DNA of 64,000 nt from Bacteroidota bacterium. Lineage in GTDB: Bacteria; Bacteroidota; Bacteroidia; AKYH767-A; OLB10. The position numbers and the translations under genes are program-made. The notes below the pieces were generated by a model. The model did no database searches and was not told the DNA's origin. It saw nothing but the letters and a program-made list of their open reading frames with translations. The DNA is taken from NCBI GenBank assembly GCA_016713525.1, contig JADJOZ010000007.1, forward strand, positions 95,033 to 159,032, read 5' to 3'. Shown here piece by piece: positions 843 to 53,559 of the stretch (positions are counted from its first letter, which is position 1; each line of letters begins with the position of its first letter).

Positions 843-893
843 AAAATGGTTTTAAGAGATTTTCAGTTATGCCATTGCTACTTCCCAATATTG

Positions 894-17630: not shown

Positions 17631-18518
17631 TTAGAAGGTAACCGTAATTTTATCTGGATCAACTTCTGCCGGGTGAACACTCAGCACGGGAATTCTTGAA
17701 TTATTCACAACTTTAGTTGCATATGTTCCGAGCAAAAATCCGGTAATGGATGGCTCTTGTTCAGTCATTATAACCAGCAAGTCGGCATCGGCTTCTTCTG
17801 CAGCTTTCATAGTCATCCCTGACAAATCATTCCCTTCCAGGAATCGGGTATCATAACTCAAATCTTGTTGCACAATATATTCTTCAACCTGCTCGATCTT
17901 TATTTTGAATTTGCGAATGAGATCTGCATTTGAAAAGTTTATTAGACCAACAACGTGGATATGAGCCCCATAAAAACGGGCAATTGCAACGGCAAAAGGA
18001 ACTTTCTGTCTTGATTCGTTCGACTCATCAATTGGAAGCACAATTTTTTTGAATCCAATTCCTTTGGCATGTGTTTGTACTGAAATTACAGGACACGGGG
18101 CTTCCTGAACAACTCTGGAAGTATTGGTTCCAACAGTAAATTTCTGGTATCCACTTGAACCGTGAGTTCCCATAACAATGATATCGGCATCAATTTCTTT
18201 GGCTACCTGACAAATTTTCTTGTAAATCCGTCCAACTTCCGTCCTTATGGAAAGCGTGATTCCGGCTTTCATATGGAGATCGTGAGCCAGTTGATCCAGT
18301 TTTTCATTGGTAGCGGTTTCGATTTTCTTTTCGAATCCACTCAATGCATGACTGATTGCGGAAGTAAATGATACGGTTTCTACAATATGAAGCAGGGTAA
18401 TTTCAGCCTTCATAAGTTTAGCCATGAATACTGCATGTTCCAGACTCAGATCTGCAGTTTCGGAGAAATCGTACGGAATGAGTATTTTTTTGATAAAATC
18501 GTCTTGGTGTGTGCTCAT
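17631..18518 (-). CDS. tandem-domain universal stress protein (UspA family)
   Basis: 295 aa; two USP domains, each ending in G..G(S/A)..G.....GS motifs (VMGTHGSSGYQKFTVGTNTSRVV). Confidence 0.7.
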   Translation of the reverse strand: MSTHQDDFIKKILIPYDFSETADLSLEHAVFMAKLMKAEITLLHIVETVSFTSAISHALSGFEKKIETATNEKLDQLAHDLHMKAGITLSIRTEVGRIYKKICQVAKEIDADIIVMGTHGSSGYQKFTVGTNTSRVVQEAPCPVISVQTHAKGIGFKKIVLPIDESNESRQKVPFAVAIARFYGAHIHVVGLINFSNADLIRKFKIKIEQVEEYIVQQDLSYDTRFLEGNDLSGMTMKAAEEADADLLVIMTEQEPSITGFLLGTYATKVVNNSRIPVLSVHPAEVDPDKITVTF

Positions 18519-18549
18519 GGTTATATTTTTAAGGTAAGACGTTAAATTT

Positions 18550-19431
18550 CTATTGAAGAACGTATGTGGTAGTATCTTTTTTTGGCGGTGGTCTGATCGA
18601 GAGAACGGGTATTTCTGACTTATTTATAATTTCCTGTGGTGCCGAAGATATAAACATATCTGTAAAACCAACCTCCTGCTGAGTCATTATCATAATCAGG
18701 CCAGCTTCAACACGGTTTGCGGTCGCAATGATTTCCTCGGCAACATCTGATCCTGAAACAACCTCGGATGTACATTTGATACCACCTTCTTCAATAAATT
18801 CCTGTACCTGATTCATTTGACGGGTAAGTTTATTAGTAAGAAACTCATCCTCACTTTCCAAAATTGTTACAATATGAATAATTGACCCAAACATGGTTGC
18901 AAGCTCAATAGCCTTGTCTACTTTTTCTTTGGTCTCTTTGGTAAGATCCAAAGGTAGCAGAATATGTCTGCATCCGAAACGATGTTCCTTGCCTTTAATT
19001 GTAATTACTGGACATTCTGACTCTCTGACGACACGCGAAGCATTCGAACCAAGAATTTTCTTCTTTAACCCCACAGCCCCCATGGTACCCATCACAATAA
19101 AAGCAGCATTCAGATCTTTGGCGGCTTCAACTATCTCGTCATAAATCTTCCCTGTTCGGGTAACTACGTTCACTTTTACTCCGGCTTCCGATTGCACTTT
19201 TTCAGCTAACTCTTTAAGCCTTAAGCCAATATCATCACGCAAGTGCGTTTCATAATTATGTTTGGCAGAAACAATATCCTGAAAAGGCTTGAGGAAATCT
19301 TCATCAATCACATTCAATAGCGTAATTTCCGATTTCGTTAAACGAGCCAGATTGAAGGATTGCCTCAGGGCAATCATGGATTGTTCACCAAAATCAATAG
19401 GAATTACAATTTGCTTTACTTCGGTACTCAT
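18550..19431 (-). CDS. tandem-domain universal stress protein (UspA family)
   Basis: 293 aa; paralog of the previous ORF (VMGTMGAVGLKKKILGSNASRVV). Confidence 0.7.
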   Translation of the reverse strand: MSTEVKQIVIPIDFGEQSMIALRQSFNLARLTKSEITLLNVIDEDFLKPFQDIVSAKHNYETHLRDDIGLRLKELAEKVQSEAGVKVNVVTRTGKIYDEIVEAAKDLNAAFIVMGTMGAVGLKKKILGSNASRVVRESECPVITIKGKEHRFGCRHILLPLDLTKETKEKVDKAIELATMFGSIIHIVTILESEDEFLTNKLTRQMNQVQEFIEEGGIKCTSEVVSGSDVAEEIIATANRVEAGLIMIMTQQEVGFTDMFISSAPQEIINKSEIPVLSIRPPPKKDTTTYVLQ

Positions 19432-19478: not shown

Positions 19479-20354
19479 ATGAAACAAATTCCTGAGTCAG
19501 AACTCATTCTAAATAAAGATGGAAGTGTTTACCACCTGAATCTTCACCCTGAAGATATTTCCGACCTGATAATCAATGTGGGCGACCCCGATCGGGTCTC
19601 AAAAGTGAGTGGTTTCTTTGATTCTGTTGAAGTTAAAAAGCAAAAACGGGAATTTGTAACTCACACCGGTTTTTACAACAAACGCAGAATCACTGTTTTG
19701 TCGACCGGAATTGGAACCGACAACATAGATATAGTTTACAATGAACTCGATGCCTTAGTTAATATTGATCTGAAAACCAGAGAGATAAAAGACAAGTTAA
19801 GCAGTTTAAACCTGGTCCGGATCGGAACATCCGGGGCCTTACAGGAAAATATTCCTGTGGATAGTTTTGTATGTTCCTCGTTTGGTTTGGGGCTCGATGG
19901 TTTGCTTAACTTCTACAACATGCCGGCAACTGATGAAGAATCCGAAATATTGGAGGCTTTCAACAATCACTACCCAACAGAGGGAAGACTACCTGCCTCC
20001 TATCTTACTAAATCACCCGGCAACCTGTTCGAAATACTGTCTCCGGGTATGCACTCCGGAATTACAGCATCGTGTTCCGGATTTTACGGACCTCAGGGAA
20101 GAGAATTACGCCTTACTCCCTATCGGCCAGACATTGTAGAAAGATTGAATGCATTTAACTTCAAAAACCATCTGATCACCAACTTTGAAATGGAAACGGG
20201 GGCCATGTATGGATTGGCAAGAATGCTTGGGCATCACTGCTGCTCGGTGAATGTTATTGTTGCCAATCGTTTGGCTCAAATGTATTCTAAAGATGCAGAA
20301 ACTTCCATGATGAAATTAATTGAACAGACACTTCAAAAGCTCACAACCAGTTGA
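19479..20354 (+). CDS. nucleoside phosphorylase (PNP/UDP family 1)
   Basis: 291 aa; GDPDRV phosphate-binding motif; family-1 phosphorylase topology. Confidence 0.55.
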   Translation: MKQIPESELILNKDGSVYHLNLHPEDISDLIINVGDPDRVSKVSGFFDSVEVKKQKREFVTHTGFYNKRRITVLSTGIGTDNIDIVYNELDALVNIDLKTREIKDKLSSLNLVRIGTSGALQENIPVDSFVCSSFGLGLDGLLNFYNMPATDEESEILEAFNNHYPTEGRLPASYLTKSPGNLFEILSPGMHSGITASCSGFYGPQGRELRLTPYRPDIVERLNAFNFKNHLITNFEMETGAMYGLARMLGHHCCSVNVIVANRLAQMYSKDAETSMMKLIEQTLQKLTTS

Positions 20355-20410: not shown

Positions 20411-23400
20411 TTATAGTTTCACAATTCTTTCTCGATATACTCCTGAAAGTGTTGAAATTTCCATCATGTAAGTACCTTCAGCAATGTCATCTCCGATATT
20501 AATTTTAGTGATTCCATTCGAAGCAAATCCCTCGCCGGCCTTTTGACTGAAAATTAATTTTCCGGCAGCATCAAATACGGATACTTTTTCTACCACATCA
20601 TTAGCATCTGTGGTTGAAAGATTTATGATGTCACCTCTGAACGGATTAGGGAACAAGGAAACTACACCTGCTTTAATAAATGATACTACTTTAATTTCAC
20701 TGTGACTGGTTCTGCCATCAAAATCGGTTTGACGAAGACGATAATAGTTCACTCCACTATTTGGTTGTTCATCATAAGCAGTATAATTGCTTACTGATGT
20801 GGTCGTACCATTTCCATCCACTGTTAGCAAATCATTAAATTCAAAACCATTTCGGCTTCTTTCAACAGTAAAATAATCATTGTTTATTTCTGATGCAGTT
20901 ATCCAGTCGAGTTTAACAACTCCGGATTGAGCTTTAGCATCAAAAGAGAGTAATTCAACAGGTAAAGGAGAAGATTGAGAAGATAGTGTCCACCAGTTAT
21001 TCAATGAGGTTTGTGTCCCTGCCAAGGTGGTATTAATAGTTGGATTCGATTGTACACCTGCAGGTGGAAACCAGCCAAGAGAAACAGGTTCCCAAAGCTG
21101 AGCACGGGGATTAACAATTCCTCCGCGTTCTGCATTTGTCATTGAGAAAGTAAGATTTGAAGTAACATTACCCGGAACAACAATTCTCCAGAATCTGTCA
21201 ACAGTATTGGCACTATTGTCGGCACCACCAAAATCTCTGACATGTGTAACGGTTGGAGGCAATGGTGAATTATCAACTGCAGAATGATAAGTTGCAATCA
21301 TAACATCACCTGAGCTTCCGGAAACCGGTTGATAGGTAAAAGGAATATACTCTGCATCGTTATAACCAAATGGGATTACAAAACTTCCTGCAGTTGTTAT
21401 ATTCCATCTGATTGCACCGCTACCGTCTTCTGTTTCACTTCTGATGTAACCATCATTTCTTGTAATGGTAGCTCCATTTTCGAGGTTCAGAATATGTCCA
21501 CCACCTGCAGTATTATGATCATTATCAAGATTCAACTCACCATCAGTAACCACAAGACCAGTACGAATATTAACATCATCATTTTCAGGATATGCAAATT
21601 CTATATCCGGAGTACCCTGGAAATTGATGTCAAGATAACCATATTCATGATCAACAGTGGTGGCAATTCCCATTCCTGCTGATGTTATTATTTGATTATC
21701 TAAGCCATTATATTCTACAGTACTATTAGCATCAAGGTAAAAATTCATTCTGTAATCGCCACTTATTTGAGGACGAATAGCCGAACTCCCTGTTGCAAAA
21801 GAATATAGTCCGTTTGGATGACCTGTAGGCAACCGCCCACCACTATTTACATTTACTTTTGCATAGTATAAAGGCTGTTCTCTGGCTGCAATCATATTGG
21901 TACCCAAATTCAGAGTTCCATCGATATTAAGTGTTGTGTGATAATTTATATTTGCACTTGCATGTGAAGCAATAGTAAAATCGAAAGCTGATGCAGCAAA
22001 ATCAACAATTGTGTTTGCAGTTATTAACTGTTTTACTTGTTGAACATCATAAAGTGGTGATGTTCGGGTAACATTAATAGTACCTGGCCGATCATACCTG
22101 ATCAGTCCATATATCGTTCTGGTTGTTAAATGAGCGCGATGCGCAAACACTGTATTATTTCCGATTAAAACATCACTACCTTTAAAAATCAACTCGTGAA
22201 CCGCAGTGCTCAGGTAACAAGAATCAAAACAAAATGTGGAATTTTCAAATGAAGCATTCCCATTAACAGTTAATTTAATCTGATCTGCTGTTGCAGTATT
22301 GCTTTTATTATAAAGTACAGCTACACTATTTAATAAATTATAATTCCCGGCAACATCAATATTTGAAACTCCGGTATTCCATTTACACACTGAAAATCCT
22401 CCTGTTTGGTCAAAATCTCCTTGAATACTCCAGTTTGAAATTCCTTTTTGGGTTGATAAACTTATACTTCCATCTGCTATCAAAATTGAACCACCAATAG
22501 TTCCAGTTATATCATGTCCACGGGAAGAGGCTATTTCATAACCATTAAATCGTGTTTTCCCGCCAAGAATATTGATATTATTTCCGATTGAAATAATTTC
22601 TTCACCACTCGACATGGAGGTGACAAAAAGTCCTTTATTATGCCCGGAAACAATTAAGTTTCCACCCACAGTAAGGTTAAGCCTGGCGGTGTTATAACCT
22701 GCTCTTGAAATTAAATACACAACTTGTAATGAATCAGAAAATGAAATCACAAAGTCATTAGTCACAGTTACATCAATTATTCTTGAATCACTGATTTCAC
22801 CACGATGCAAATAGAATTTACTATTTGTGATAAATAAATCTGAACATGAAAGTGAAGCGTCCCCATTATTACCTGTGGTTCCATTGTTCATGGCACCGAA
22901 TGTGGAATTATTGATGTTGATTACTTCGGTTACATTTAAATCGATGGAACCATATCCTCTCGACTGATAGAAGGAACCGGCATTAACGGATAAACTACCA
23001 TTTATTCCGATGTTAACATTTCCAAATGCTTCTGAATGTCGTTGTCCATAAAATATGGAAGTGGCTCCATTTTGAGTGAAGTTTCTTCCAACCTGCATAT
23101 TTAAACCACCAGCAGTTGTACTTACATACAATTGGGCGTCTGTAATATTCAGATCATTTGTTACTGTTAAATAGGTGTCATTGTAATTGGTATCACAATA
23201 AGCGATGTAACAACGGGTTGTTGCTCCCAACAAAGTCATGTCACCATTAATGGTAACCTGAGCAATACCTAAAGTTCCATAGCTACCCATGAAATAAACA
23301 TTACGTGAATTATCAATAGTAAGACTTCCTGAGTTAAATGTGACATCCCCGTCAAATCTGTCTTTCAAAGTTACCAGAGCAGGATTTCCTGAAATCGTGG

Positions 23401-24733
23401 ATGTTCCTGTAATATTGAATGAAATTGGCCCAACAGCATTTTTATACGCTTCAAAAATACTTCCGTTAACCGAAAAATTTCCGTTTACAAAAATACTGGC
23501 AGAACCCGTATCGGCAACCGATTGACCAAGAACCATGCTAAAGCGGTGTTCGAAATGCAAATCTCCATTTACCGTCCAGATCAAATCTCCCATAGAACGA
23601 AACATGATGTATGACGAATTTGAATTGGTGCTGACATCTGAAAAACTACCAGTTTGTAATGTGAGATCACGAGCTGTTCCTGTACTGACAACTATTCTTC
23701 CTGATCCATCAACAACCACATCATTTAAAATTAAAGAAGTCGACATACCGGTACCATCATCAAAAACAACAGTTCCTGAAGATATTGTTAAGTCGCCTAA
23801 AATTCTGTCAGGAGCAAACAAACCATCCTGTTGCCAGCTTCCAACAGCGTTAAAAATCAAATTTCCAAATTTCCCGCTAACTAACGCACCTAATGGTACA
23901 TTATAATTGTACCATTTTTTCAAAATCATAGTTGAAGTTGGACTAATACTTTCAACTCCGGCAAAGATTCCTGTAGAGGCATCTGTTGTATTGTTATGGG
24001 TATATGTTCCTGATCCAGCAATTTGAAAAACTCCGGATACACCAATACTTTTATCTGTAATAAGGTTACCATTATTATTAATGGTTAAATTCACCAGATT
24101 GACACTAAAATCAGCAATCACCTGATGATTGATTGTAACATTGTCACTACAGCTCGGAATTATACCTCCGGCCCATATTGAAGCATCAGACCAATTTCCG
24201 TCTGCAATTGTTGTATAAGCAGCACCATTTCCTGTCGAGAAAAAACTTCCATGCAATATTCCCGATCCGGGAGCATTTCCTGTAATTGTTGCTGTTCCTC
24301 CAGTTAAGGTTCTGTAGAGATTCCCTGTCTGGTTGGGACCTGTTCCCCGAACTTCAATATTTCTGATTCGGAAATAATCAAGTGCATTAACATTACCAAC
24401 ATTCAGCGTCACGGTGATAGTTGATGCAGTAACACTAATTGATGCAAAACTAATGTCTGCTCCAGATGCAATTGAAATATTTCCAACTCCTGGTTTGAAT
24501 TCAAATCCAAGCGGCGCTGTTAATATAAAGGTGCTACCTGCCTGAATTGGGAAATCATTATTCAAAGTTTCGGCAATAGTTATATTACCAATAATAGCAT
24601 AAGGGCCGGGGGAAATTGACAAACAATTACCTCCGGTAGCGGGGGTGACGGTAACATTGGCTTTTGAAACAGTTACCATAATAAATGATAACAAAATCAA
24701 TAATCCCGGTAATTTGAGTTTTAACTTTTTCAT
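20411..24733 (-). CDS. giant T9SS-secreted surface protein A (beta-helix-like repeats plus type A C-terminal sorting domain)
   Basis: ORF runs to 24862, but the signal peptide MKKLKLKLPGLLILLSFIMVTVSKA starts at 24733; N/G/T/S-rich repeats; GNWSDASIWAGGIIPS motif; C-terminal about 80-aa T9SS sorting domain ending ...ISTLSGVYRERIVKL. Confidence 0.7.
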   Translation of the reverse strand: MKKLKLKLPGLLILLSFIMVTVSKANVTVTPATGGNCLSISPGPYAIIGNITIAETLNNDFPIQAGSTFILTAPLGFEFKPGVGNISIASGADISFASISVTASTITVTLNVGNVNALDYFRIRNIEVRGTGPNQTGNLYRTLTGGTATITGNAPGSGILHGSFFSTGNGAAYTTIADGNWSDASIWAGGIIPSCSDNVTINHQVIADFSVNLVNLTINNNGNLITDKSIGVSGVFQIAGSGTYTHNNTTDASTGIFAGVESISPTSTMILKKWYNYNVPLGALVSGKFGNLIFNAVGSWQQDGLFAPDRILGDLTISSGTVVFDDGTGMSTSLILNDVVVDGSGRIVVSTGTARDLTLQTGSFSDVSTNSNSSYIMFRSMGDLIWTVNGDLHFEHRFSMVLGQSVADTGSASIFVNGNFSVNGSIFEAYKNAVGPISFNITGTSTISGNPALVTLKDRFDGDVTFNSGSLTIDNSRNVYFMGSYGTLGIAQVTINGDMTLLGATTRCYIAYCDTNYNDTYLTVTNDLNITDAQLYVSTTAGGLNMQVGRNFTQNGATSIFYGQRHSEAFGNVNIGINGSLSVNAGSFYQSRGYGSIDLNVTEVININNSTFGAMNNGTTGNNGDASLSCSDLFITNSKFYLHRGEISDSRIIDVTVTNDFVISFSDSLQVVYLISRAGYNTARLNLTVGGNLIVSGHNKGLFVTSMSSGEEIISIGNNINILGGKTRFNGYEIASSRGHDITGTIGGSILIADGSISLSTQKGISNWSIQGDFDQTGGFSVCKWNTGVSNIDVAGNYNLLNSVAVLYNKSNTATADQIKLTVNGNASFENSTFCFDSCYLSTAVHELIFKGSDVLIGNNTVFAHRAHLTTRTIYGLIRYDRPGTINVTRTSPLYDVQQVKQLITANTIVDFAASAFDFTIASHASANINYHTTLNIDGTLNLGTNMIAAREQPLYYAKVNVNSGGRLPTGHPNGLYSFATGSSAIRPQISGDYRMNFYLDANSTVEYNGLDNQIITSAGMGIATTVDHEYGYLDINFQGTPDIEFAYPENDDVNIRTGLVVTDGELNLDNDHNTAGGGHILNLENGATITRNDGYIRSETEDGSGAIRWNITTAGSFVIPFGYNDAEYIPFTYQPVSGSSGDVMIATYHSAVDNSPLPPTVTHVRDFGGADNSANTVDRFWRIVVPGNVTSNLTFSMTNAERGGIVNPRAQLWEPVSLGWFPPAGVQSNPTINTTLAGTQTSLNNWWTLSSQSSPLPVELLSFDAKAQSGVVKLDWITASEINNDYFTVERSRNGFEFNDLLTVDGNGTTTSVSNYTAYDEQPNSGVNYYRLRQTDFDGRTSHSEIKVVSFIKAGVVSLFPNPFRGDIINLSTTDANDVVEKVSVFDAAGKLIFSQKAGEGFASNGITKINIGDDIAEGTYMMEISTLSGVYRERIVKL

Positions 24734-25263
24734 ATCAATGTGGCTGGCACAGCCATTTTTTTCGAGTACAAACGGTTCAACTAGGTGCACATTTATACCA
24801 TTGATGTACTCAAAAGATTGAACATTTTTTAGCAAAACCTTACAATATAATTTCAACCTCAAAATTGATTAAAATATTGCATCTCATTGATTATATGTGA
24901 TTTACAAAATTCTAAAGTGCTCCTTTCTGATCAAAAATGACTTAAAAGTCACTGGTTTGAAAAACAAAGCGCTCAAATGACTTTTGAACAGCCTATCCGA
25001 CTAGTTAAAATGGAATCGTATTGTTGAAAATGTAAGGCATTTACAGATAAAAACAAATTTATAGATTATAACTATATAATATTCAATATATTGTAAATCC
25101 AGACATCAAAATCCAAGCGATTAATTTCTGTAATAAAAGTGAGCATTTTGGTGAACATTCTCGGCTTGAATGATGTATACAGGTTCATCTTTCAATAAAA
25201 AAAAGAGACCGAACACGACACTTTAAGTTAAGAGACTACATATAATATTAATCTGCCCGGATT

Positions 25264-28200
25264 ATGAATCGATTCTGCCCAATCGTATCATTATCATCAT
25301 TAGTGATGATTTTGTTGCTCATTTTTTCACCAACTGCACATGCGGCGGTAACAGTTACACCTGCGTCTTCCGGATCCTGTTTAAACCTGTCACCAGGGGC
25401 ATATCTTGCCATTGGAGATATTGTTATTCAGGAAAATAATAATGGTGATTTTAGCTCCGCCGGAGGTAGTCGTACATTAATTTTATCGGCACCAGCAAAC
25501 TTTCAATTCCAGGCAGGCGTTGGTAATGTAACATATCAGGCAGGTAGAAACATAACTGCCGCAAGTATTGCGGTTGCAGCCGGAACAATTACAGTAACTT
25601 ATACATGTAGCAACACAAATCGTAGCGACCGGATGACCATTTCAGGGATTATGGCTCGAGCAACCGCTGTACCTGCATCCGGAAATATTGTAAGAACAGG
25701 TGGTACAGGAACCATCAATGGAGATGCAACAGGAGGCGGTGTTAACCATGGTACTTTAACAGCCTTTGCCGGTGGAGCTACACGTACATCTATTGCAGCA
25801 GGAAACTGGTCATCTCCCGGAACCTGGTCGGGTGGCAATGTTCCAAATTGCAATGACAATGCCGTCATTAACCACAATGTAACAGGCGACATGAGTACCA
25901 AATTAAACAATCTCACAATAAACACTGGTGGTACATTAACTTCAAACAGTTCTATAACTGTTACAGGAACATTTACCATAGCCGGTACCGGAACATACAT
26001 TCACAATAATAATGCGAATGCTGCAATTGGTATATTTTCAGGAACTGAAAGTTTTTCAACAACCAGCACCATAGAAATGCGTGATTGGTATAATACAAAT
26101 ATCCCACTTGCCACAAATGTTTCAGGAGATTTTGGCCACATCATTTTTGATGAAGGAAGTGGAAGTACCTGGAATCAAGATGGTCTATTTTCCCCCCACC
26201 GTATTAAAGGAAATCTGACAATCAGATCAGGAGGGATTTTAATGGACGATGGTACAGGAATGACTACTACTCTTACCCTTCAGGATGTTTTGCTGGAAGG
26301 AAGTGGTGCATTACGAATTGCTGAAGGCAATGACAGAAATCTGACCTTAGTAACAAACAATTATTCCGACAGCAGAACTTCAGGAAGTGTTTTTTATTCC
26401 GGAATTCAATTCGACTGCTCAGGCAGTGTAAGCTGGACAGCCAATGGAGATGTCCTTATTGAAGCATCGTGGAGCTACTATGAAGGCAGTGCTGGTACCG
26501 GTAATTCTGTGATTACCATAAATGGTGATTTAACAATTGATGCGGGGGCATTCGACTTCAATCGAAATGTGGATGCATCGCTTACAGTAGTCGTTAATGG
26601 AAACACCTATGTGAATAATAATACTACATGGGTTCGCTTTCTCGACAGATACGATGAAGATATAAGTTTTACTACAACGAATATGTATGTATATGGAGGA
26701 GCAAACAATACTTTTCATGGAGGTACAAATCCTACCGGCGATGCCATATTTAATATTACAAATGATTTGATTGTAACCGGTGGATCTACTGTAGCCACTT
26801 TTGTTAGCAGTACTAGTAACACAGCAACTTCAACATTAAATGTTGGAAGAGATATTTTGCTGACAGATGGAGACATCAGAGTTTCAAACACCAATTCAAC
26901 CACAACAATTAATGTAAGCAGAAATATTGTTCTTACGGGATCAAATAGTGATTTTTATGGACAAATTTACAGTTCAGGTAACAAACTCACAGATTTAAAT
27001 GTTACCGGCAATATTGAACTCAACAATGGCGACTTCTATATTTCTCTTGGATTAGGAAATGTAACATGTGATATTGTAGAAAACCTTGATATCAATAATG
27101 GTAGATTTTTTGCAATCAACAATACAGCTGCGGCAAATAATGGTCTTGTTACATTTTCATGCAATGACCTCGACTTCGATGGAGGAATATTCCATCTTTT
27201 CAATGGTAGAATTAATGACGGAAAAACAATAACTGCTACAATTAATGGCAACCTTGATATAAACTTCCTGAACATTGCTGATCTGGTAACTTTCATTGGT
27301 TTAACAGGGACAAATAACCCATTACTTGATCTGAATATCTCTGGAAATATGATCGTTAACGGAAACTTTCCGGGCTCCTATTTTATGAGCAGTTCTTCAT
27401 CAGGAAATGAAACAGTTGATATTGGAGGAAACCTGACAGTAAATGCAGGAGATGTGTTTTTTGTAGGTAATGAATCAGGATTGACAGCCAGTCATAACAT
27501 AACCACCAACATAACTGGTGACATAAATATTACCGGTGGCAATACCCGTCTTTCAACAGGAACAGGTACAGCAGATATTGATGTGGATGGATCTGTTTCC
27601 ATTTCAAATGGAACACTTTCATTGAAATATGATGCAGGTGTTGCTACTCTGAATGTTTTGGGAAGCTATACTCAAAGCGGGGGAACTTTCAACTTACACT
27701 CCAGGAATGCAACAACCGCTGACAACAATATCGTTAATGTATTTGGTAATTTCCTAATGAGCAATGGAACTTTCCGATTCGATAACTTTGCTTCAGGAGC
27801 GGGATTAGCTGAACATAGCTTATTCTTGTATGGCACATCTTTCACACTTGATGGAAATGCTTCAATTATTCATGCAAATGACCTGACCACCAACTACATT
27901 TTTGGTCAAATATATTTTAGCTATCCCGGAACCATGGATTACTTGCGTTACAGCAATACCAATTCTATTAATCATGTTCGTTACACGGTTCAACCTTCCA
28001 CTACACTGGATGCAACCAGCAGCACTTTCCCATTACAAATAACTTCCGTTGATAACAGCACACCTGCAAATCATTTCGCACTTACTGTGAACGGAACCAT
28101 TGATATGGGAAATCAAATCATTCAAGCACGACAATCAGGTTCTCATTATTCAAGGGTTATTGTTGCTGCAGGAGGACGATACAGATTAAGTCACACCGGA

Positions 28201-29601
28201 GGATTATATTCTGGAAATGCATTAACAGCATCTTCAATTGATGGATTTATTAACGGAAATAACCGTGTAAACTATCAGCTCAATATAAGTTCAATCGTTG
28301 AATATTATGGAACTTCAAATATTCCAATCACTGGAATCCCAAATGGAGTTGCCACTGGAAATAATCAAAAATATGGTTTTCTTGAAATAAACTTTACCGG
28401 AGTGGCAGGTTCAACCTGGGTTTATCCGGAAGCTAATAATGAAGTTTATGTTCGATCAGGACTTCTGCTTACTGCAGGTGAATTTAATCTCGATAATGAC
28501 CACAATACAGCAACCGGGGGACGAGCAATTACAATTGAAAACAATGCTACTATCTCACGTACTTCAGGTTTTATCCGTAGTGAAACCGAAGATGGTTCAG
28601 GAATTGTTCAGTGGGATATAAATAGCAATGGAAGCTATGTTGTTCCTTTGGGCTATGATGCTATGACCTACATTCCATTTACATATCAGCAAACTGCCGG
28701 AGCATCAGGCATTGTTTCTTTTGGAACTTATCGTTCAGCAGCAGACAACACCCCTTTCCCTCCAACAGTATCACATGTAAGAGATCTTTCAGGCACTGAT
28801 AATAGTGCTAGTACTATAGACCGGTTCTGGAAACTAACCCAAGCAGGAGCAGGAACAGCAACTTTAACCTTCTCTTATGCTGCTGCAGAAGATCCGGGTA
28901 TATTAAGTCCGAGGGCTCAACTCTGGGAACCGGTTTCACTCGGATGGTTTCCGGCTACTGCAGGACAATCCAATCCAACAGCAACAACTACTGCTGTCCC
29001 TACAATTACTACGTTAAATACCTGGTGGACTCTTGCTGCGGCAGCTTCTCCTCTTCCAATCGAATTACTTTCATTTGAAGCAATTAAATCAGGCAATAAT
29101 GTGGATTTAATCTGGCGAACTGCAAGTGAAATAAATAATGATTTCTTCACTATTCAAAAAAGTAAGAATGGTTATGAATTTGAAGACATTGCCACTGTTG
29201 ATGGTGCTGGCAACAGCACATCGGTAACAAATTACAAAATTACTGATACCAAACCTTACAATGGAATTAACTATTACAGACTGATGCAAACCGATTTTGA
29301 CGGCAAGTTCACTTATAGTGAAATCAGAAGCATTTTCTTCGGTACTAAAGGTGCGATCTCGGTATTCCCGAATCCTGCTCCACAAAATAACCAAATTCAG
29401 ATTGCAATTCCAAATGAAGGAGAGTATACAATGAATATTACTGATGCAAGTGGCAGAATAATTCAATATGAAAAAATTCATGCGACTGCAAATAATCAGA
29501 TAGTACCGATAAATCTGAATGCAACTCTCAGCTCGGGAATATATCAGATTGGAATACAAAATGAAAATGAAAATTACAACTCCAAATTAATAATTCGGTA
29601 A
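25264..29601 (+). CDS. giant T9SS-secreted surface protein B (paralog of A, divergently transcribed)
   Basis: 1445 aa; signal peptide; same architecture as A (AAVTVTPASSGSCLNLSPG vs ANVTVTPATGGNCLSISPG; GNWSSPGTWSGGNVPN; LPIELLSF...); T9SS C-terminal sorting domain. Confidence 0.7.
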   Translation: MNRFCPIVSLSSLVMILLLIFSPTAHAAVTVTPASSGSCLNLSPGAYLAIGDIVIQENNNGDFSSAGGSRTLILSAPANFQFQAGVGNVTYQAGRNITAASIAVAAGTITVTYTCSNTNRSDRMTISGIMARATAVPASGNIVRTGGTGTINGDATGGGVNHGTLTAFAGGATRTSIAAGNWSSPGTWSGGNVPNCNDNAVINHNVTGDMSTKLNNLTINTGGTLTSNSSITVTGTFTIAGTGTYIHNNNANAAIGIFSGTESFSTTSTIEMRDWYNTNIPLATNVSGDFGHIIFDEGSGSTWNQDGLFSPHRIKGNLTIRSGGILMDDGTGMTTTLTLQDVLLEGSGALRIAEGNDRNLTLVTNNYSDSRTSGSVFYSGIQFDCSGSVSWTANGDVLIEASWSYYEGSAGTGNSVITINGDLTIDAGAFDFNRNVDASLTVVVNGNTYVNNNTTWVRFLDRYDEDISFTTTNMYVYGGANNTFHGGTNPTGDAIFNITNDLIVTGGSTVATFVSSTSNTATSTLNVGRDILLTDGDIRVSNTNSTTTINVSRNIVLTGSNSDFYGQIYSSGNKLTDLNVTGNIELNNGDFYISLGLGNVTCDIVENLDINNGRFFAINNTAAANNGLVTFSCNDLDFDGGIFHLFNGRINDGKTITATINGNLDINFLNIADLVTFIGLTGTNNPLLDLNISGNMIVNGNFPGSYFMSSSSSGNETVDIGGNLTVNAGDVFFVGNESGLTASHNITTNITGDINITGGNTRLSTGTGTADIDVDGSVSISNGTLSLKYDAGVATLNVLGSYTQSGGTFNLHSRNATTADNNIVNVFGNFLMSNGTFRFDNFASGAGLAEHSLFLYGTSFTLDGNASIIHANDLTTNYIFGQIYFSYPGTMDYLRYSNTNSINHVRYTVQPSTTLDATSSTFPLQITSVDNSTPANHFALTVNGTIDMGNQIIQARQSGSHYSRVIVAAGGRYRLSHTGGLYSGNALTASSIDGFINGNNRVNYQLNISSIVEYYGTSNIPITGIPNGVATGNNQKYGFLEINFTGVAGSTWVYPEANNEVYVRSGLLLTAGEFNLDNDHNTATGGRAITIENNATISRTSGFIRSETEDGSGIVQWDINSNGSYVVPLGYDAMTYIPFTYQQTAGASGIVSFGTYRSAADNTPFPPTVSHVRDLSGTDNSASTIDRFWKLTQAGAGTATLTFSYAAAEDPGILSPRAQLWEPVSLGWFPATAGQSNPTATTTAVPTITTLNTWWTLAAAASPLPIELLSFEAIKSGNNVDLIWRTASEINNDFFTIQKSKNGYEFEDIATVDGAGNSTSVTNYKITDTKPYNGINYYRLMQTDFDGKFTYSEIRSIFFGTKGAISVFPNPAPQNNQIQIAIPNEGEYTMNITDASGRIIQYEKIHATANNQIVPINLNATLSSGIYQIGIQNENENYNSKLIIR

Positions 29602-29606: not shown

Positions 29607-29896
29607 GTTGTCAGCACTGCCCTGCTGATAGCTTTCTTCCGGATTGATGTTACCATGTGAACAGTGAAGTAAAGGGTCGGCACTGCCCGGCCGGCCCTTC
29701 TTTTAAAATTAAAATTGACTTAGCATTATCAGTAAATAAAGAGGCTATCACTGCCCTGATAGCCTCTCTTTTCACAAATTAAAACTGAATCCAAATAAAT
29801 TTAGAGACTATCTCTGCCCGGATAGTCTCTCTTTTCAATCTTTAAATAATATTCACAAAATAAGCCAAACTACCACTGCCCTGTTGGTCTGGCTTA
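29607..29896 (+). repeat. array of five stem-loops with invariant CUGCCC loop and co-varying stems (3' region of giant gene B)
   Basis: Hairpins at about 29607-29632, 29674-29697, 29740-29767, 29803-29830 and 29863-29894. Loops are CTGCCC, ACTGCCCG, CTGCCC, (T)CTGCCC(G) and CTGCCC. Stems of 8-13 bp differ in sequence; hairpins 3 and 4 are homologous, with compensatory G-C to A-T changes. Confidence 0.5.
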
Positions 29897-29947: not shown

Positions 29948-31322
29948 TTATTTTTTCATCAATTCAGCATAATTCTTAAAAAAGTGTGGAATAGTTTCAA
30001 TACCCTTCATAAAATTGAATATTCCATAATGTTCATTCGGACTGTGAATATCATCGGAATTTAGTCCGAATCCCAAAAGAACTGACTTCAGTCCTAATTC
30101 TCTTTCAAACAAAGCCACAATTGGAATAGAGCCACCTTCTCTTGTTGGAATTGGTTTCTTACCAAATGTAGTTTCCATTGCTGCACTTGCAGCCTTATAA
30201 GCAACGGAATCAGTAGGAGTTACAACTGGTTCGCCTCCATGGTGTGGTGTAACTTTAACTTTAACCGATTTAGGGGCAATTTTTTCAAAATGCTTCTGAA
30301 ATAAGGCAGTTATTTTTTCAGAAGTCTGGTTTGGAACTAAACGCATTGAAATTTTAGCAAAAGCTTTAGAAGGTAACACAGTTTTCGCACCTTCTCCGAT
30401 ATAACCACCCCAAATGCCATTCAACTCGAAACTCGGACGAATAGATGTTCTTTCATTGGTAGTAAATCCTGATTCTCCATGCACATCATTAATCTGCAGG
30501 TCTTTCATGTAGGCATCCTGACTAAATGGTGCTTTGGCCATTTCATTTCGTTCTTCAGCACTTATTTCAACAACATCATCATAAAAGCCTGGTATAGTGA
30601 TATGATTAGTTTCATCTTTGGTAGCGGCGATCATCTCACCTAAAATCTGGATCGGATTTGCAACTGCTCCACCATAAACTCCGGAATGTAAATCACGATT
30701 TGGTCCTGTAACTTCTACTTCAACATAAGAAAGTCCACGTAAGCCAACAGTTATGGATGGGACATCATTTGCGATCATTGAAGTGTCTGATATCAATATC
30801 ACATCAGCTTTTAAACGGGCTTTGTTATTTTTTACAAATTCACCCAAATTCACCGAACCTACTTCTTCTTCACCTTCAATCAGGAATTTTATATTACAAG
30901 GCAGTGACTGATTTTTCATCATGCTTTCAAAAGCTTTCCATATGCATGAAAACCTGTCCCTTATCGTCACAGGATCCACGCGCATATATTTTCTCATCCT
31001 TTATTATCGGCTCGAAGGGTGGTGAATGCCATAAATCCAATGGATCGGCAGGCTGTACATCATAATGACCATAAACCAAAACTGTTGGCAATGATTCATC
31101 AATAATTTTCTCACCATATACTATTGGATGTCCTTTCGTCTGACAAATTTCAACTTTATCGGCTCCGGCAGTAATCAGATTGTCACTAATAAAAGAGGCA
31201 GCTTTCTGCACATGATCTTTATACTTTGAATCTGCACTTACCGAGGGTATTCTGAGTAAATCGAATAATTCCTTTAAGAACTGATCTTTATGGGTTGCAA
31301 TGTAATTCTGAACTTTTTCCAT
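29948..31322 (-). CDS. M20 family dipeptidase, with apparent 1-nt indel near 30937-30940
   Basis: N-part ...IYARGSCDDKGQVFMHM and C-part KAFESMM...EGEEEVGS... join to the M20 consensus MH(V/M)KA(L/F)E; two ORFs overlap in different frames. Confidence 0.7.
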
Positions 31323-33469: not shown

Positions 33470-34161
33470 ATGTTAAAAATTTTAATTGTTGCTGCAACGG
33501 AGCGGGAATCTGCCTTTCTGATTTCAAAAAAAATTAAGAATTCAACCCCTCAGTTAATCACCGTTACTACTAATCCATTAATTCAGGTTGATTTACTTAT
33601 CACAGGACCCGGTATGGTGGCAACCACTTTTGCAATGACAAAAACGCTGGAAAACAATGATTATCAACTCACTATAAATATTGGCATTTGCGGTTCACTC
33701 GATAAAAAATTGCAACCTGTAAGACTGGTCAATATTGCCACCGATCAATTTGGGGATTTTGGAGCAGAAGATGATAAAGAATTTCTACCTGCATTCAATA
33801 TCGGACTCCTTCCAAATCAAAAGGGAATTCAAAAGAGCGGGGAATTAAAATCAACTAACAAATTTAAAATCAGCAGTTTAAAGGCTATTCCACAACGAAA
33901 AGGAATTACAGTACAAAAAGTGCACGGTTCTGCAAAAAGTGCCAGAGAAGCTTTTGACCGGTATGGTCCGGTGATGGAAACCATGGAAGGAGCGGCCTTT
34001 TTTATGTAGCAAACCAATATAGGATTCAATCACTTCAAATACGTGCTATTTCTAATATGGTAGAAAAGCGGAATCGCAAATCCTGGAAAATTGACGAAGC
34101 TATTGATGCTTTGTCGGGATATATCTCTTTGCTTTTGTTGGAATTACAATCTCATAAATGA
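33470..34161 (+). CDS. mqnB: futalosine hydrolase MqnB-like (MTA/SAH nucleosidase family), with apparent 1-nt frameshift near 33998-34003
   Basis: LITGPGMVATT..ETMEGAAFF, then YVANQYRIQSLQIRAISNMV... in the +1 frame after a T6 run; joined length 230 aa. Confidence 0.55.
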
Positions 34162-35903: not shown

Positions 35904-37763
35904 TTAGTTTATCACCAATTTAGCTATTTTCCGATTACCTGATTGAATAATATTAACCAGGTAAATTCCTTTTGACAAGCCAGACCCATCAATAACAAAT
36001 GTATTGGTAGTTCCTGTTAGAGAAGCTTGGTAACAAATTCTTCCTTTCATATCAATTACTTCTATACTTGAAACTGTTCCTTTTGAAGCATCCCAGGTTA
36101 TCATGGTTTTTCCGGATGCAGGATTTGGAGAAATAGTAATCCCGCTATTAATATCCAATTCGGAAAGGGACAAACAGTCATCCACAATTACAGAAACATC
36201 ATATGGAATAATACATCCGTTTCCTGCATCGTAAGTATAAGTTATAACGTGAGTACCTACCCCTGCATTTCCGGGTTGGAAAGAATTACCGGTGACACCT
36301 GCTCCGGAAAATGAACCTCCTAAAGGCGTTCCTGACAAATTAACTGATGAACCATTCACACAAATTATCTGTGGCAATCCACTAAAGAACACATTAGGGG
36401 AGGGATTTAGAATAAGTGTAACGGTATCTGAATAATTGATGCATCCGGAACCATTAGTTACCCTTACATGATAATTCCCGGATACTGTTGTGTTATAAGT
36501 TGCGGTTGCAGCTAAAGGCAAGGGAGCTCCATTCTGAAACCATTGGTATGAAAATCCGGGGAAGAAAGGGGTTTTTAAGGAATAAGATGATGTACAGGAT
36601 GTAATCGTATCTTCAACAGATATAAATGCCGTTGGGAGACATGAAGCATCTGAAAGTTTCAGTACACCACTGGTGTTCTTTCCAATATATAATTCTCCAT
36701 ACCTGTCCTGGCCAAATGTGGTGTATTCATAAAGTGTTGCACCACCTAAGGAATTATGCACGAAAGTACCATTTCCTGCAGGTGTGAGTGTTTGAATTTC
36801 ACCGCTACAATAATCTGCAAAAAAGTACTTTCCAAACCATGCAGCATATTGCGGACCACGGTAAACATAGCCACCGGTTACTGCGCAAGGAGGAAAGTGA
36901 CCATATGTATAAACAGGTTCAGTGAGTGCTGAGGCAGGGAGGCAACCAACAGTATCAAAAACTGTAACACCTTCATAACATCTCCATCCATAATTCTCAC
37001 CGCCGGAACTCGATGCAGGCTGGAAATTAATTTCTTCCCAAAGATTTTGACCAACATCACCAATCCAGAAGTCACCTGTTATTTTATCGAATGAAACTCT
37101 CCATGGATTTCTTACACCAACAGCCCATATATGCGGATTTGCCACAGAAGATCCATAATATGGGTTGCTTCCGGGAATACTATAACCTGAAGGAGTATTA
37201 ACATCAATACGCAAAATTTTTCCTAGTAAAAGCTGCTTGTTCTGTGCCCTGTTTCCGGGATCTCCTCCTGCACCACCATCGCCTAGAGCAATATACAGGT
37301 AACCATCGGGACCAAAATGCATGGAACCACCATTATGATTTGGATAAGGTTGAGCAACTGTAAATAAAATTTCTTCATTCAATGAATCGGCCACATCGGG
37401 ATTACCGGCACTAACCTGAAAACGGGATACAACAGTGGTTCCGATGAGGTTTGTATAATTAACATAAAACCGTCCATCACTGGCATAAGTCGGGCTAAAT
37501 GCCAAACCCAACAACCCCTGCTCCGATGTATTATCATTTACCTTAGATGTTATACTTAGAAAAGGAGTTGGAAGTAAATTGCCCGACAAATCGGAAATCC
37601 GGATTCTACCTTCCTGTTCTACTATGAAAAGCCGGTCATCACCAACATTAGTAATATCAGTTACTTTGTTAACTGCATTGACAAATGGAGTAAGTGTCAA
37701 CTGAGCTTTTACAATGCAAAATGACATCAGGATAAGTAACAGCGAGAAATATAATTTTTTCAT
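35904..37763 (-). CDS. PQQ-dependent sugar (glucose/sorbosone) dehydrogenase with PKD-like domain and T9SS C-terminal sorting domain
   Basis: GSDH signature ...LGLAFSP...GRFYVNYT...PNHNGGSMHFGPDGYLYIALGDGGAGGDPGNRAQN...GKILRIDV; signal peptide; C-terminal ...GIYLVNIIQSGNRKIAKLVIN. Confidence 0.7.
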   Translation of the reverse strand: MKKLYFSLLLILMSFCIVKAQLTLTPFVNAVNKVTDITNVGDDRLFIVEQEGRIRISDLSGNLLPTPFLSITSKVNDNTSEQGLLGLAFSPTYASDGRFYVNYTNLIGTTVVSRFQVSAGNPDVADSLNEEILFTVAQPYPNHNGGSMHFGPDGYLYIALGDGGAGGDPGNRAQNKQLLLGKILRIDVNTPSGYSIPGSNPYYGSSVANPHIWAVGVRNPWRVSFDKITGDFWIGDVGQNLWEEINFQPASSSGGENYGWRCYEGVTVFDTVGCLPASALTEPVYTYGHFPPCAVTGGYVYRGPQYAAWFGKYFFADYCSGEIQTLTPAGNGTFVHNSLGGATLYEYTTFGQDRYGELYIGKNTSGVLKLSDASCLPTAFISVEDTITSCTSSYSLKTPFFPGFSYQWFQNGAPLPLAATATYNTTVSGNYHVRVTNGSGCINYSDTVTLILNPSPNVFFSGLPQIICVNGSSVNLSGTPLGGSFSGAGVTGNSFQPGNAGVGTHVITYTYDAGNGCIIPYDVSVIVDDCLSLSELDINSGITISPNPASGKTMITWDASKGTVSSIEVIDMKGRICYQASLTGTTNTFVIDGSGLSKGIYLVNIIQSGNRKIAKLVIN

Positions 37764-38437: not shown

Positions 38438-40518
38438 TCAGTAGGCAAGTACTTTAGCAATCATTGCAGCAACCTTTTCAGCATTTGGAATCATTGTAAA
38501 TTCAAGAACTGAATTCAATGGAATGGCAGGTAAATTTTCAGAACCTATCACATCTACAGGTGCATCCAGGTGACGGAAACATTTGGAGGAAATTCTTCCT
38601 GCCAATGCCTGTGCAAAAGAATTATTTACCGGTTCTTCAGTAACAACCAAACAACGATTATTGCGGACAACCGATTCAAATATAAGATCTTCATCAATCG
38701 GATGAATTGTTCTTAAATCAATAATTTCAACTCTGCCAGGAAATTGTTTGGCAGCATTTTTTGCCCAATAAACACCCATCCCATAAGTAATAATGCTCAA
38801 TGTAGTGTGTTTACTTTCGATATCAGATTCCTGAACAATTCTTCCCTTGCCAAAAGGAATTATATAATTTTCATCCGGTTCAATGGTCTTAGCGTCTTCC
38901 GTACCTTTTATTTTTGACCAGTATAAACCTTTGTGTTCAAAAATTACTACCGGATTGGGGTCATAATAAGCAGCCTTTAACAAACCTTTTAAATCAGCTC
39001 CTGTAGAAGGATATGCAATTTTCACGCCCCGTATATTCGCTACTACACTTTCAACACTTGAAGAATGATAAGGACCGCCGCTTCCATAAGCACCAATAGG
39101 CACCCTGATAATGCAACTAACCGGCCATTTACCATTCGACAAATAACAAGATCGACTGACTTCTGTAAACAATTGATTTAGTCCTGGCCAGATATAATCT
39201 GCAAACTGAACCTCTACTATTGGCTTGCAACCGGCAGCCGACATCCCAACGGTACTTCCTATAATAAATGCTTCCTGTATTGGAGTATTAAATACTCTGT
39301 CGTCACCAAATTTTTGTGCCAGTGTTGCGGCTTCTCTGAAAACTCCGCCTAACCTTCTTCCAACATCCTGACCATATAAAAGGCATTCTTTATGTTTGGT
39401 CATTAATTCCTGGACAGCAAAAGTGCGCAATCCACCATCACAGTTTTTTCTTTACCTGCCGGCTCCCTCTCCCCTTTTTCTTCTGTTACAGGAGTGGGTG
39501 CAAAATCATGGAGATACAAATCTTCCGGCCTGGGGTCTTCCGCAGCCATGGCTTTGTTATAATCTATCTGAACTGTTGCATCACAGTTACTGATTATCTG
39601 ATCTAGTTGATCAGAAGAAAATCCGAAGTCAATTAATTGATTTCGAAATTTAGGGTAAGGATCACGTTTTTGTTGTTCTTCCAGATCATCTCTATACCAT
39701 TCCTTCCGAACACCGGAAGTATGATGATTTAACAATGGCACTTTTGCATGAATAAGGAACGGACGTCTTTCTGTCCGCACTTTTGAAAATACTTCCCGAA
39801 CAGTTTGATACGAAGTAATAAAATCCGTTCCATCAATAGACCTTACCTCAAGTCCTTTAAATCCTTCGGCATATTCTGAAGCATCCATTGCTCTGATTTC
39901 ACGGGCATGAGCAGAAATGTCCCATTCATTATCCTGTACCAAATAAACTATTGGCAACTTTTTCAACACTGCCATCTGAAAAGCTTCTGCTACTTCACCT
40001 TCAGTGACAGAAGCATCACCCAATGAACAAACTACAAGAGGTGCATTTCCTGTTTCAGCAACTGCTAATCCCTGTTTTTCAAGATACTGAATTCCCATCG
40101 CCACACCAGTTGCGGGAATTGCCTGCATTCCTGTTGCTGATGATTGCATTGGAATTTTAGGCATTCCAGGACGATTCAAACTCGGATGACTATAATATAA
40201 CCTGCCACCACTAAAAGGATCGTCTCGCTTCGCCATTAATTGAAGCATTAATTCATATGGCTGCATTCCAATAGACAACAAAATACTGTCGTCGCGGTAA
40301 TATGCAGAAAGAAAATCCTGCTCTCCCAACTGCAAACCAAGTGCTATTTGAATTGCTTCATGTCCCCGTGAAGTTGCATGTACATATTTACTGGTAAAGG
40401 CACTATTTGCCTCGTATATTGCAGACATTGCCTTTGCTGTTCCCATAAGTCTGAATGCATTCAGCAAAATGGCTTCAGAAATTTCGGTAGCGGCGGCAGC
40501 TTCTTTGATATTATTCAT
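38438..40518 (-). CDS. 2-oxoacid dehydrogenase E1 component, alpha (TPP-binding) plus beta (transketolase-like); probably a fused alpha-beta gene with a 1-nt homopolymer frameshift near 39444-39449
   Basis: Alpha ORF 39403-40518 and beta ORF 38438-39430 overlap by 28 nt; ...EKGEREPAGKEK continues as NCDGGLRTFAVQELMT in the -1 frame after a T6/A6 run. Confidence 0.6.
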
Positions 40519-41999: not shown

Positions 42000-42767
42000 C
42001 TACCTGGCTCCGGACTTGAAACCGGAAATTGCAGATCTCGTGTATTCTGACAATACCAGAGTGCCACTCATTTCTGCACGTTCAACCAATAAGGAATCCC
42101 AATGCTCGGTACCTTTCCAGAAAACCTGTTTAAGAGCAGCCATTGCTTCGGGACTGCTGGCTGAAAGTTTAGATGCCAGTTCATCAACAGCCTTGTCAAG
42201 TTCATCGATGGTGTTAAAAACATCCGCATATAATCCTTTTTCGCGTGCCCATGCAGCTGACTGCCATGCGGTGGCATTTATTGACAAAGAAGTGAATGCT
42301 GCCGTTCCAACTTTACGTTCTACGGCAGGTCCAACCACAAATGGTCCAATGCCAACAGCTAACTCAGAAAGTTTCACAGAAGCGCTTTCATGAGCAAGCG
42401 TATAATCTGCAGCAGAAGCTAATCCAACTCCTCCACCAACTGCTTTGCCCTGTACTCGTGCAATTACAAATTTAGGAGCCTTTCTGATAGCATTAATAAC
42501 CATGGCAAAACCGGAAAAAAATTGTCTGCCTTCATCAAAACTATTTATTGACATAAGTTCATCAAAGGATGCACCAGCACAAAATGCTTTTTCACCACCG
42601 CTTCGCAGAACAATAACATTCACCAAAGAATTATTTCCTGCATTCGTAATAGCTGTTGCAAGACCTCTTAACAATTCTCCAGGTAAAGAATTACTTTGAG
42701 GATGAAAAAAAGTAATTGTTGCAATTCCGCTATTGATAGCTGTTTGAATTGTTCCTTCGTTCAACAT
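42000..42767 (-). CDS. enoyl-CoA hydratase/isomerase family protein (PaaF/PaaG-like)
   Basis: 255 aa; crotonase fold with FCAGA...VNGFALGGG-type motifs (KAFCAGASFDEL, AVGGGVGLA). Confidence 0.7.
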   Translation of the reverse strand: MLNEGTIQTAINSGIATITFFHPQSNSLPGELLRGLATAITNAGNNSLVNVIVLRSGGEKAFCAGASFDELMSINSFDEGRQFFSGFAMVINAIRKAPKFVIARVQGKAVGGGVGLASAADYTLAHESASVKLSELAVGIGPFVVGPAVERKVGTAAFTSLSINATAWQSAAWAREKGLYADVFNTIDELDKAVDELASKLSASSPEAMAALKQVFWKGTEHWDSLLVERAEMSGTLVLSEYTRSAISGFKSGAR

Positions 42768-42797
42768 AGAAACTTAATTAAATAGTATAAAATAATT

Positions 42798-43391: not shown

Positions 43392-43404
43392 TCCTTTCTA
43401 ATTT

Positions 43405-45449: not shown

Positions 45450-45546
45450 AAATATATTGTGATGATGTTACAAATATAAGACAGTTTTAATGTTACCAAA
45501 AGTCGTTCAGAGCATTGAAAACACTAAGTTTTGAACACCCTATGAC

Positions 45547-46137: not shown

Positions 46138-46146
46138 GGCAATTAT

Positions 46147-47352: not shown

Positions 47353-47382
47353 TAGCTGTTATTAAAGGCACGAAGGTAAGAA

Positions 47383-49838: not shown

Positions 49839-49855
49839 AATTTCGCTTCAGTATT

Positions 49856-53549: not shown

Positions 53550-53559
53550 CAATTGAGGT

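Follow-up and report, generated by a model that had tools for sequence, protein, structure and literature searches.

The stretch of DNA analysed here, which we refer to as the window, comprises 64,000 nucleotides of contig JADJOZ010000007.1 from the Bacteroidota assembly GCA_016713525.1, which belongs to an uncultured bacterium of the Bacteroidia from wastewater. Within it, two very large genes, called A and B in what follows, lie head-to-head across an AT-rich spacer. They encode paralogous cargo proteins of a type IX secretion system (T9SS), both of the type A class and with a predicted beta-solenoid core. The locus is laid out as follows.

20411-24733, minus strand: gene A, 1440 aa, ATG at 24733
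24734-25263, no strand: spacer between the start codons of A and B, 530 bp, AT-rich, centre unconserved
25264-29601, plus strand: gene B, 1445 aa, same architecture as gene A
29607-29632, plus strand: terminator-like hairpin, 6 nt past the stop codon of B

The spacer contains 161 G+C (30%, vs about 38% for the window). The open reading frame (ORF) of gene A is listed as 20411..24862 (-) from a TTG codon; its start was set at the ATG at 24733, because the signal peptide begins there and because the same gene call (1440 aa) is found in L001, a nearly identical locus (related loci are given here as L numbers and homologous proteins as P numbers). L001 is contig JADJUR010000002.1 of assembly GCA_016716985.1, a Bacteroidetes metagenome-assembled genome (MAG), to which the window is collinear and 99.55% identical, with 100 substitutions and 16 single-base indels over 24.3 kb. 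The identity of the gene B protein to P0001 rounds to 100%, and its 90%-identity cluster bears only the name 'T9SS type A sorting domain-containing protein'.

By BLASTP, A and B are collinear and 41% identical over 1444 columns, with 19 gaps (E = 0). Identity reaches 48% in the N-domain, 54% in the cap and first coils, 55% in the helix end and C-domain and 56% in the FN3-like domain; it is 31% in the mid-solenoid, which shows only 6 gaps in 655 residues, and 25% in the C-terminal sorting domain (CTD). In both proteins 40-43% of the sequence consists of N, G, T and S residues. An earlier interpretation, made by a model from the letters and their ORFs (the sequence-only reading), had described two giant genes facing away from each other across a 530-bp AT-rich spacer, about 35-45% identical and of the same architecture. 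Its coordinates and layout are correct and the measured identity falls within its range; the T9SS type A domain, the GNWSxxxxWxGGxxP motif and the beta-helix that it assigned to both proteins are supported by the analyses given below, and the signal peptides were recognised by reading the sequence.

Domain architecture and predicted fold

In both A and B the order of domains is signal peptide, cohesin-like N-domain, G8-like cap, beta-solenoid, beta-sandwich region, FN3-like domain and T9SS type A CTD. The putative signal peptides, read from the sequence alone, are MKKLKLKLPGLLILLSFIMVTVSKA followed by N in A and MNRFCPIVSLSSLVMILLLIFSPTAHA followed by A in B, and each shows a basic n-region, then a hydrophobic core, and finally a site of AxA type (SKA/N in A, AHA/A in B). 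The CTD scored 33.6 bits with TIGR04183 and 27.7 bits with PF18962 at aa 1360-1439 of A, and 39.9 and 33.9 bits, respectively, at aa 1367-1445 of B, so that both proteins lie above both curated cut-offs (23 bits for TIGR04183 and 27 bits for PF18962). This sorting domain is the only one that passes the curated Pfam or NCBIfam thresholds in both proteins, and about 1300 of 1445 residues, or some 90% of each protein, have no match in either database. Beyond the CTD, profile searches of Pfam, NCBIfam and PDB returned only two weak matches, one to G8 and one, probably spurious, to CBM77. The passenger beyond the CTD matches no curated family, and the pair is otherwise mechanistically unsurprising.

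The G8 match (PF10162) was found in B at aa 187-256, covering profile positions 1-67 of 124, with 17.5 bits (E = 0.0038) vs a gathering threshold of 22.9; the Pfam scan gave no G8 match in A. When six diverse family members were scanned against Pfam, the distant relative P0047 scored 25.6 bits, above the threshold, and P0050 scored 22.5 bits. A relation of A and B to G8 is plausible, with neither of the two reaching the threshold itself. Their likeness to the G8-capped beta-helix proteins (PKHD1, CEMIP, TMEM2 and bacterial members) lies in the start of the helix, where GNWSxxxxWxGGxxP aligns with the first half of the G8 model, and the difference lies in these scores. CEMIP and TMEM2 are hyaluronidases with a G8-capped parallel beta-helix. 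In an alignment of 50 homologs, positions G180, W182, W188 and P194 of the motif are invariant, and so are the polar residues Y245, H247, N249, E262, D328, R1105, S1106, E1107, D1186, R1187 and Q1219, which group in two places, the first coils and the 1060-1260 region.

AlphaFold2 models of segments of B were built from a 56-sequence alignment. The segment B25-1010 was modelled as all-beta with a predicted local distance difference test score (pLDDT) of 91.9 and a predicted template modelling score of 0.78, and the segment B960-1445 with a pLDDT of 88.2. The model of B places about 78 short strands in about 780 residues, from approximately 170 to 960/1000. At the same time, the coil motif [IVLF]x[G..][ND..][ILMVFY]x[ILV..]xx[GNAD] occurs 12 times in A and 15 times in B, vs 2.5 +/- 1.5 in shuffled sequences, mostly at a spacing of 24-30 residues. 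In Foldseek searches the best solved match of the solenoid of B was 3p4g, the beta-solenoid of the MpAFP ice adhesin (probability 0.97, template modelling score 0.42-0.47, E > 1e-3), and long but loose matches were found to phage 'parallel beta-helix repeat' and tail-fibre proteins. Taking together the AlphaFold2 model, the periodic coil motif and the weak Foldseek matches to solenoids, we accepted this fold, and the long central part of A and B is predicted to be a beta-solenoid. Structure prediction had been named as a check in the sequence-only reading, and the solenoid obtained for B supports its beta-helix claim.

The N-terminal residues, about 145 of them, form a beta-sandwich in the model, and their nearest solved matches are the cohesin 2xdh, the CLIPPER adhesin domain 9ifr and Gram-positive pilins and adhesins, all of them weak (E > 1e-3). 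The C-terminal segment of B is modelled as the last coils, a beta-sandwich at about 1060-1262, a low-confidence SPLP linker, an FN3-like domain at 1263-1362 and the CTD, with structural matches to FN3 tandems and to the T9SS protein PorU. Three modules (the N-domain, 1058-1262 and 1263-1445) each recur in other T9SS cargo with different cores. Moreover, the N-domain is triplicated in P0046, the 1060-1262 module is also found in many proteins of about 450-530 aa, and P0065, annotated as 'G8 domain-containing protein', shares residues 180-260 and 1067-1445. Modularity of this kind is typical of surface proteins.

Age of the duplication and conservation of the spacer

An exhaustive search of 1.84 billion representatives, with B170-1262 as the query, recovered 105 proteins at E <= 1e-30, a number that rises to 545 at E <= 1e-3, and the family amounts to roughly 100 clusters (at 50% identity) of core relatives among these representatives. 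About 45 full-length homologs, of 1431-1456 aa, were obtained at 39-85% identity, and the hosts are almost all uncultured Bacteroidia from wastewater, lake and soil metagenomes. In a neighbour-joining tree, A forms a clade with P0037, P0041, P0045, P0020 and P0036, and B forms another with P0002-P0016. BLAST scores agree with this split, and in L002 one member of each clade is present in the same genome. Our search of the literature found no paper on the assembly or on this family.

Among 77 related loci examined by tblastn, the divergent pair A(minus)/B(plus) was also found in L002 (= L016), L005, L006, L007, L008, L009, L010, L018, where the B gene runs on into L021, and L078-80. The orthologs of gene A at eight other loci show 51-75% identity, and the orthologous spacers measure 483-571 bp with 24-32% GC. 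The syntenic flank consists of CinA, DUF4197, Usp, Usp and PNP on one side, and of M20, an acyltransferase, GTP cyclohydrolase and further genes on the other. Since the divergent pair and its flanking genes recur across all these species, the duplication predates them; it is old, the split between A and B being earlier than at least nine species-level lineages, and the divergent layout is conserved to the same degree as its neighbourhood. The conserved pairing is a tidy evolutionary observation. In the window itself, the neighbours of the pair include universal-stress-protein paralogs in tandem and two PNP_UDP_1 phosphorylase genes (17631-19431, 19479-20354 / 33470-34009), a flank that is syntenic in all related loci.

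A sister (third) clade has a duplicate of its own, in which both copies are B-like and closer to each other than to A or B, which points to an independent duplication. In L003 (5495-14341) and L004 (476-9322) these copies are in tandem, on the same strand and 180 bp apart, at the same PNP-flanked site. In L011 (DASUFP010000030.1, 3647-9996) B is missing from an otherwise syntenic locus, leaving a lone A-type gene flanked by PNP and the M20 peptidase, and the family members of the MAGs SJ183 and BCD are spread over separate contigs. Because of these three arrangements the layout is not obligatory, and the head-to-head orientation is dispensable. On copy-number variation in relatives, which had been suggested as a point to look at, the comparison shows a tandem duplicate in the sister clade and A alone in L011, beside a pair that is kept in at least nine other lineages.

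For orthologs from four close genomes, the Nei-Gojobori method gave ratios of nonsynonymous to synonymous divergence (dN/dS) of 0.11-0.15 in A and 0.06-0.07 in B, ratios that are rough because dS, at 1.2-1.8, is near saturation. Amino-acid changes in A are about twice those in B and fall mainly in solenoid residues 450-900, and no window of 150 codons exceeds a ratio of 0.17. This indicates that both genes have been under long-standing purifying selection as two distinct proteins. The sequence-only reading had proposed antigenic or functional diversification: a functional one is compatible with the long divergence, whereas dN/dS values of 0.06-0.15 and the old split of A from B lend no support to an antigenic one. 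Between L005 and L078, A is 97% identical (dS 0.24) and B 92% (dS 0.55), and comparisons with the window show the opposite order, A being the faster to diverge. Since these orders of divergence are opposite, A and B seem to have different histories, possibly through recombination inside the locus.

Conservation of the spacer is limited to about 100-130 bp beside each gene, and some 300 bp at its centre cannot be aligned even where the B proteins are 83-85% identical. Its elements are the following.

24740-24763, plus strand: GC-rich hairpin GTGGCTGGCACAGCCAT and then a T run, 7 nt from the start codon of A
24775-24805, minus strand: A-proximal conserved block, 42-72 nt upstream of the A ATG, containing GGTATAAATGTGCACCTAGTTGAAC on the A strand
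24838-24844, minus strand: TGTAAGG (plus strand: CCTTACA); in divergent pairs, each A-type gene has this word 105-148 nt upstream
25031-25037, plus strand: second TGTAAGG, oriented towards B, about 233 nt upstream of the B ATG
25172-25263, plus strand: B-proximal conserved region, with GATGTATACAGGTTCATCTTTCAAT at 25172-25196 and TTAAGTTAAGAGACTACATATAATATTAATCTGCCCGGATT at 25223-25263

The block at 24775-24805 is probably the core promoter or the leader of A. TGTAAGG is present in all eight distinct A-type upstream regions compared, and in L018 it stands upstream of both genes. The copy oriented towards B is the sole conserved word in the centre of the spacer, and is conserved in the close relatives L005, L008 and L078 only; upstream of B, TGTAAG is variable in position or absent. 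The sequence TAATCTGCCC, immediately before the B ATG, is kept in five of eight species. The A-proximal and B-proximal blocks share a GTATAAA-like core, each in the orientation of its own gene, and because these cores are similar, A and B may have similar promoters, which suggests co-expression rather than reciprocity. Moreover, since only the gene-proximal blocks are conserved, we infer that each gene has a proximal promoter of its own and that the AT-rich centre is dispensable. A single control region shared by both genes, as first proposed, is doubtful with conservation confined to the two ends and a centre that does not align.

The hairpin at 24740-24763 is terminator-like on the plus strand and lies inside the leader of A on the minus strand, and its stem is kept and its loop varied in L005, L008 and L078. 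It could be a leader structure of A or a terminator for an antisense transcript. RNAalifold found no consensus structure for the A leader across nine leaders, which align poorly, a search of the spacer against Rfam at E <= 1 gave a single chance match of 17.9 bits, and a sigma-70 promoter scan performed no better than on shuffled sequences.

Secretion, function and alternative explanations

We consider it reasonably likely that A and B are two sub-functionalised surface-anchored T9SS cargo proteins, kept after the ancient inverted duplication of one gene, and they are probably adhesins or glycan binders. A single large T9SS cargo gene would have been duplicated in inverted orientation and both copies retained as distinct surface proteins. 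Both would be exported by Sec via the signal peptide, and the T9SS would then carry them across the outer membrane, with the type A CTD as guide. As in characterised type A cargo, the CTD would then be removed and the protein joined to a surface glycolipid. T9SS cargo is described as secreted and surface-anchored, presumably via C-terminal glycosylation (PMC11969387). In the geometry that we envisage, the FN3-like and beta-sandwich modules would lie near the membrane and the solenoid would project outward with about 26 coils over about 12 nm (an estimate that takes about 30 residues and 4.8 Å per coil). This would leave the cohesin-like N-domain and the G8-like cap at the distal end, where they would bind a ligand; in the sludge floc, a polysaccharide or the surface of another cell is the most plausible candidate. 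Each gene would be transcribed from its own proximal promoter, and the divergent layout would have been inherited with the synteny, rather than acting as a switch.

Two known systems are instructive for comparison. With type A cargo of the T9SS, such as the gingipains, the pair shares a putative N-terminal Sec signal (as read from the sequence), the C-terminal type A domain of about 75 aa, a large modular all-beta passenger and a host among the Bacteroidia. It differs in that the passenger has no match to characterised cargo. With the fibrillar adhesins, represented by region IV of MpAFP/MpIBP (3p4g) and by the IgA1 protease autotransporter (3h09), it shares a distal beta-sandwich of binding type, a long solenoid and a cell-proximal anchor, and these two are the best solved structural matches for the solenoid, with very low template modelling scores. 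Unlike these adhesins, which use type I or type V secretion, A and B would use the T9SS; they also have no Ca-binding repeat motif, and their number of coils is fixed rather than variable. In the geometry envisaged, A and B would have the plan of a fibrillar adhesin, with a frozen length and invariant polar residues at both ends of the solenoid that allow an enzymatic role or a defined assembly. If they are abundant on floc-forming or filamentous sludge bacteria, they would be candidates for adhesion between cells, or between cells and extracellular polymeric substances, in activated sludge.

Several observations weigh against this interpretation. Every Foldseek match of the solenoid to a solved structure has E > 1e-3, and the family is experimentally uncharacterised. 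A plain adhesin stalk would not typically show so strict a length (1431-1456 aa) or such invariant polar residues, which would fit an enzyme or a defined assembly equally well. Regarding promoters, the spacer has a single copy of the canonical Bacteroidetes -7 word TAnnTTTG (25054-25061, minus strand), at a distance of about 320 nt from the A ATG, and with 83 occurrences in the window vs 79 expected it is no commoner than chance. In addition, none of the T9SS machinery genes (PorK/L/M/N, Sov/SprA, PorU, PorV) lies in the window, and the secretion competence of the host is presumed from its phylum and from other cargo genes. Among these is a third T9SS type A cargo gene in the window at 35904-37763 (-), which encodes a glucose/sorbosone dehydrogenase (GSDH) fused to Por_Secre_tail (49.7 bits), and SprB/CHU_C genes adjoin related loci.

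It could be considered, as an unlikely alternative, that the two proteins degrade polysaccharides, as secreted or surface-bound enzymes whose parallel beta-helix carries a G8 cap, a design known from lyases, glycosidases and the CEMIP/TMEM2 hyaluronidases, and that the two copies differ in substrate specificity. The G8-like start of the helix, which passes as PF10162 in P0047 and is sub-threshold in B, is compatible with this, and so is the grouping of invariant polar residues in the first coils and in the 1060-1260 region. The conserved length would suit a defined catalytic fold, and the phage beta-helix matches include proteins of depolymerase type. However, no sequence match to a catalytic beta-helix family was found in Pfam, NCBIfam or PDB at E <= 1, the structural matches to GH87 and pectate lyase have probabilities of at most 0.07, and no SusC/D polysaccharide-utilisation genes adjoin the pair.

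A more doubtful proposal is that A and B are obligate partners, made together under divergent promoters that serve co-regulation, and assemble side by side as a length-matched heteromeric surface fibre or lattice. The near-equal lengths, the scarcity of gaps in a mid-solenoid that is only 31% identical, the retention of the pair in at least nine other lineages and of a second, independent duplication in the sister clade, and the similar GTATAAA-type blocks and TGTAAG words before both genes, each in the orientation of its gene, would all fit such a structure. If true, uncultured sludge Bacteroidia would possess a T9SS-built surface structure of a new type, which would explain the frozen number of coils, the duplicates kept twice independently and the similar upstream words. 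On the other hand, partners that depend on each other are hard to reconcile with A standing alone between PNP and M20 in L011, with members on separate contigs in SJ183 and BCD, with a rate of evolution in A about twice that in B, and with the unequal divergence of the two proteins between L005 and L078.

The sequence-only reading had taken the head-to-head layout as a sign of phase-variable or mutually exclusive expression. Such a switch would be an element of the spacer that inverts or slips, leaving each cell with either A or B. The long AT-rich spacer kept at 483-571 bp across many species, the TGTAAG words in opposite orientations at 24838 and 25031 and an A8 run at 25197-25204 are features that such a switch could use. 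Invertons are described as bearing inverted repeats at both ends (10.1101/2023.10.25.564076), and their inversion as enzyme-mediated (PMC10028968). The A/B locus resembles the invertons of Bacteroidales in its surface-exposed products, its Bacteroidota host and a long AT-rich intergenic region able to hold both promoters, and differs from them in that flanking inverted repeats, a nearby recombinase and orientation variants were not found. In the spacer of the window the best inverted pairs measure 10-15 nt with 80-100% complementarity and are imperfect and unconserved, no conserved near-perfect flanking repeats are present in eight orthologous spacers, and genes A and B have no long identical inverted segment in common that could drive inversion or gene conversion. 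Neither the window ORFs that were scanned nor the gene tables of L001-L004 and L078-L081 include a recombinase or integrase, which leaves room for a recombinase that acts from a distance. Homopolymer runs in the promoter region are limited to the A8 run, which is interrupted in L005, L008 and L078, and to T7 at 24757-24763, and no repeat tract is conserved. The spacer has an identical structure in three independent JGI assemblies of a close relative, and these assemblies and three Logan contigs show it in one and the same orientation, as consensus assemblies in which minority orientations are invisible. The three Logan contigs start 100 nt upstream of B, and this break was considered as a signal of inversion and rejected: it falls at a C/A single-nucleotide polymorphism between strains, and therefore reflects a bubble in the assembly graph and not a structural variant.

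None of the testable signs of an inverton or of slipped-strand variation held for the pair, and with the tandem duplicate of the sister clade and the lone A of L011 also arguing against it, a switch is very improbable. Head-to-head paralogs of surface proteins do not by themselves indicate phase variation, and caution is needed when such a layout is interpreted.

Other observations in the window

Next to the pair and further downstream, the genes for the M20 peptidase (29948-31322), an E1 dehydrogenase/transketolase (38438-40518) and a PaaZ-like Aldedh-MaoC protein (43405-45449) are each split into two overlapping ORFs and are intact in GCA_016716985.1. These splits could be frameshift errors or could belong to a close strain variant. 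The region 42000-58510 (-) holds a phenylacetate catabolism cluster, with PaaA/C-type subunits, PaaD, enoyl-CoA hydratases, 3-hydroxyacyl-CoA dehydrogenase, a thiolase and the PaaZ-like protein. This cluster is interrupted by an aminotransferase and by plus-strand PAS-domain paralogs at 50027-51124 and 51795-53129, the latter with HisKA. At 58815-62041 (+) lies a polysaccharide export pair, Wza-like (Poly_export and SLBB) and Wzc-like (Wzz, GNVR and AAA), which borders a region of low GC content (31-34% from 60 kb onwards). Finally, at the other end of the window, 159-1589 (-) contains two adjacent paralogs of about 230 aa with DUF4412 / PNGase_F-II_N-like matches.

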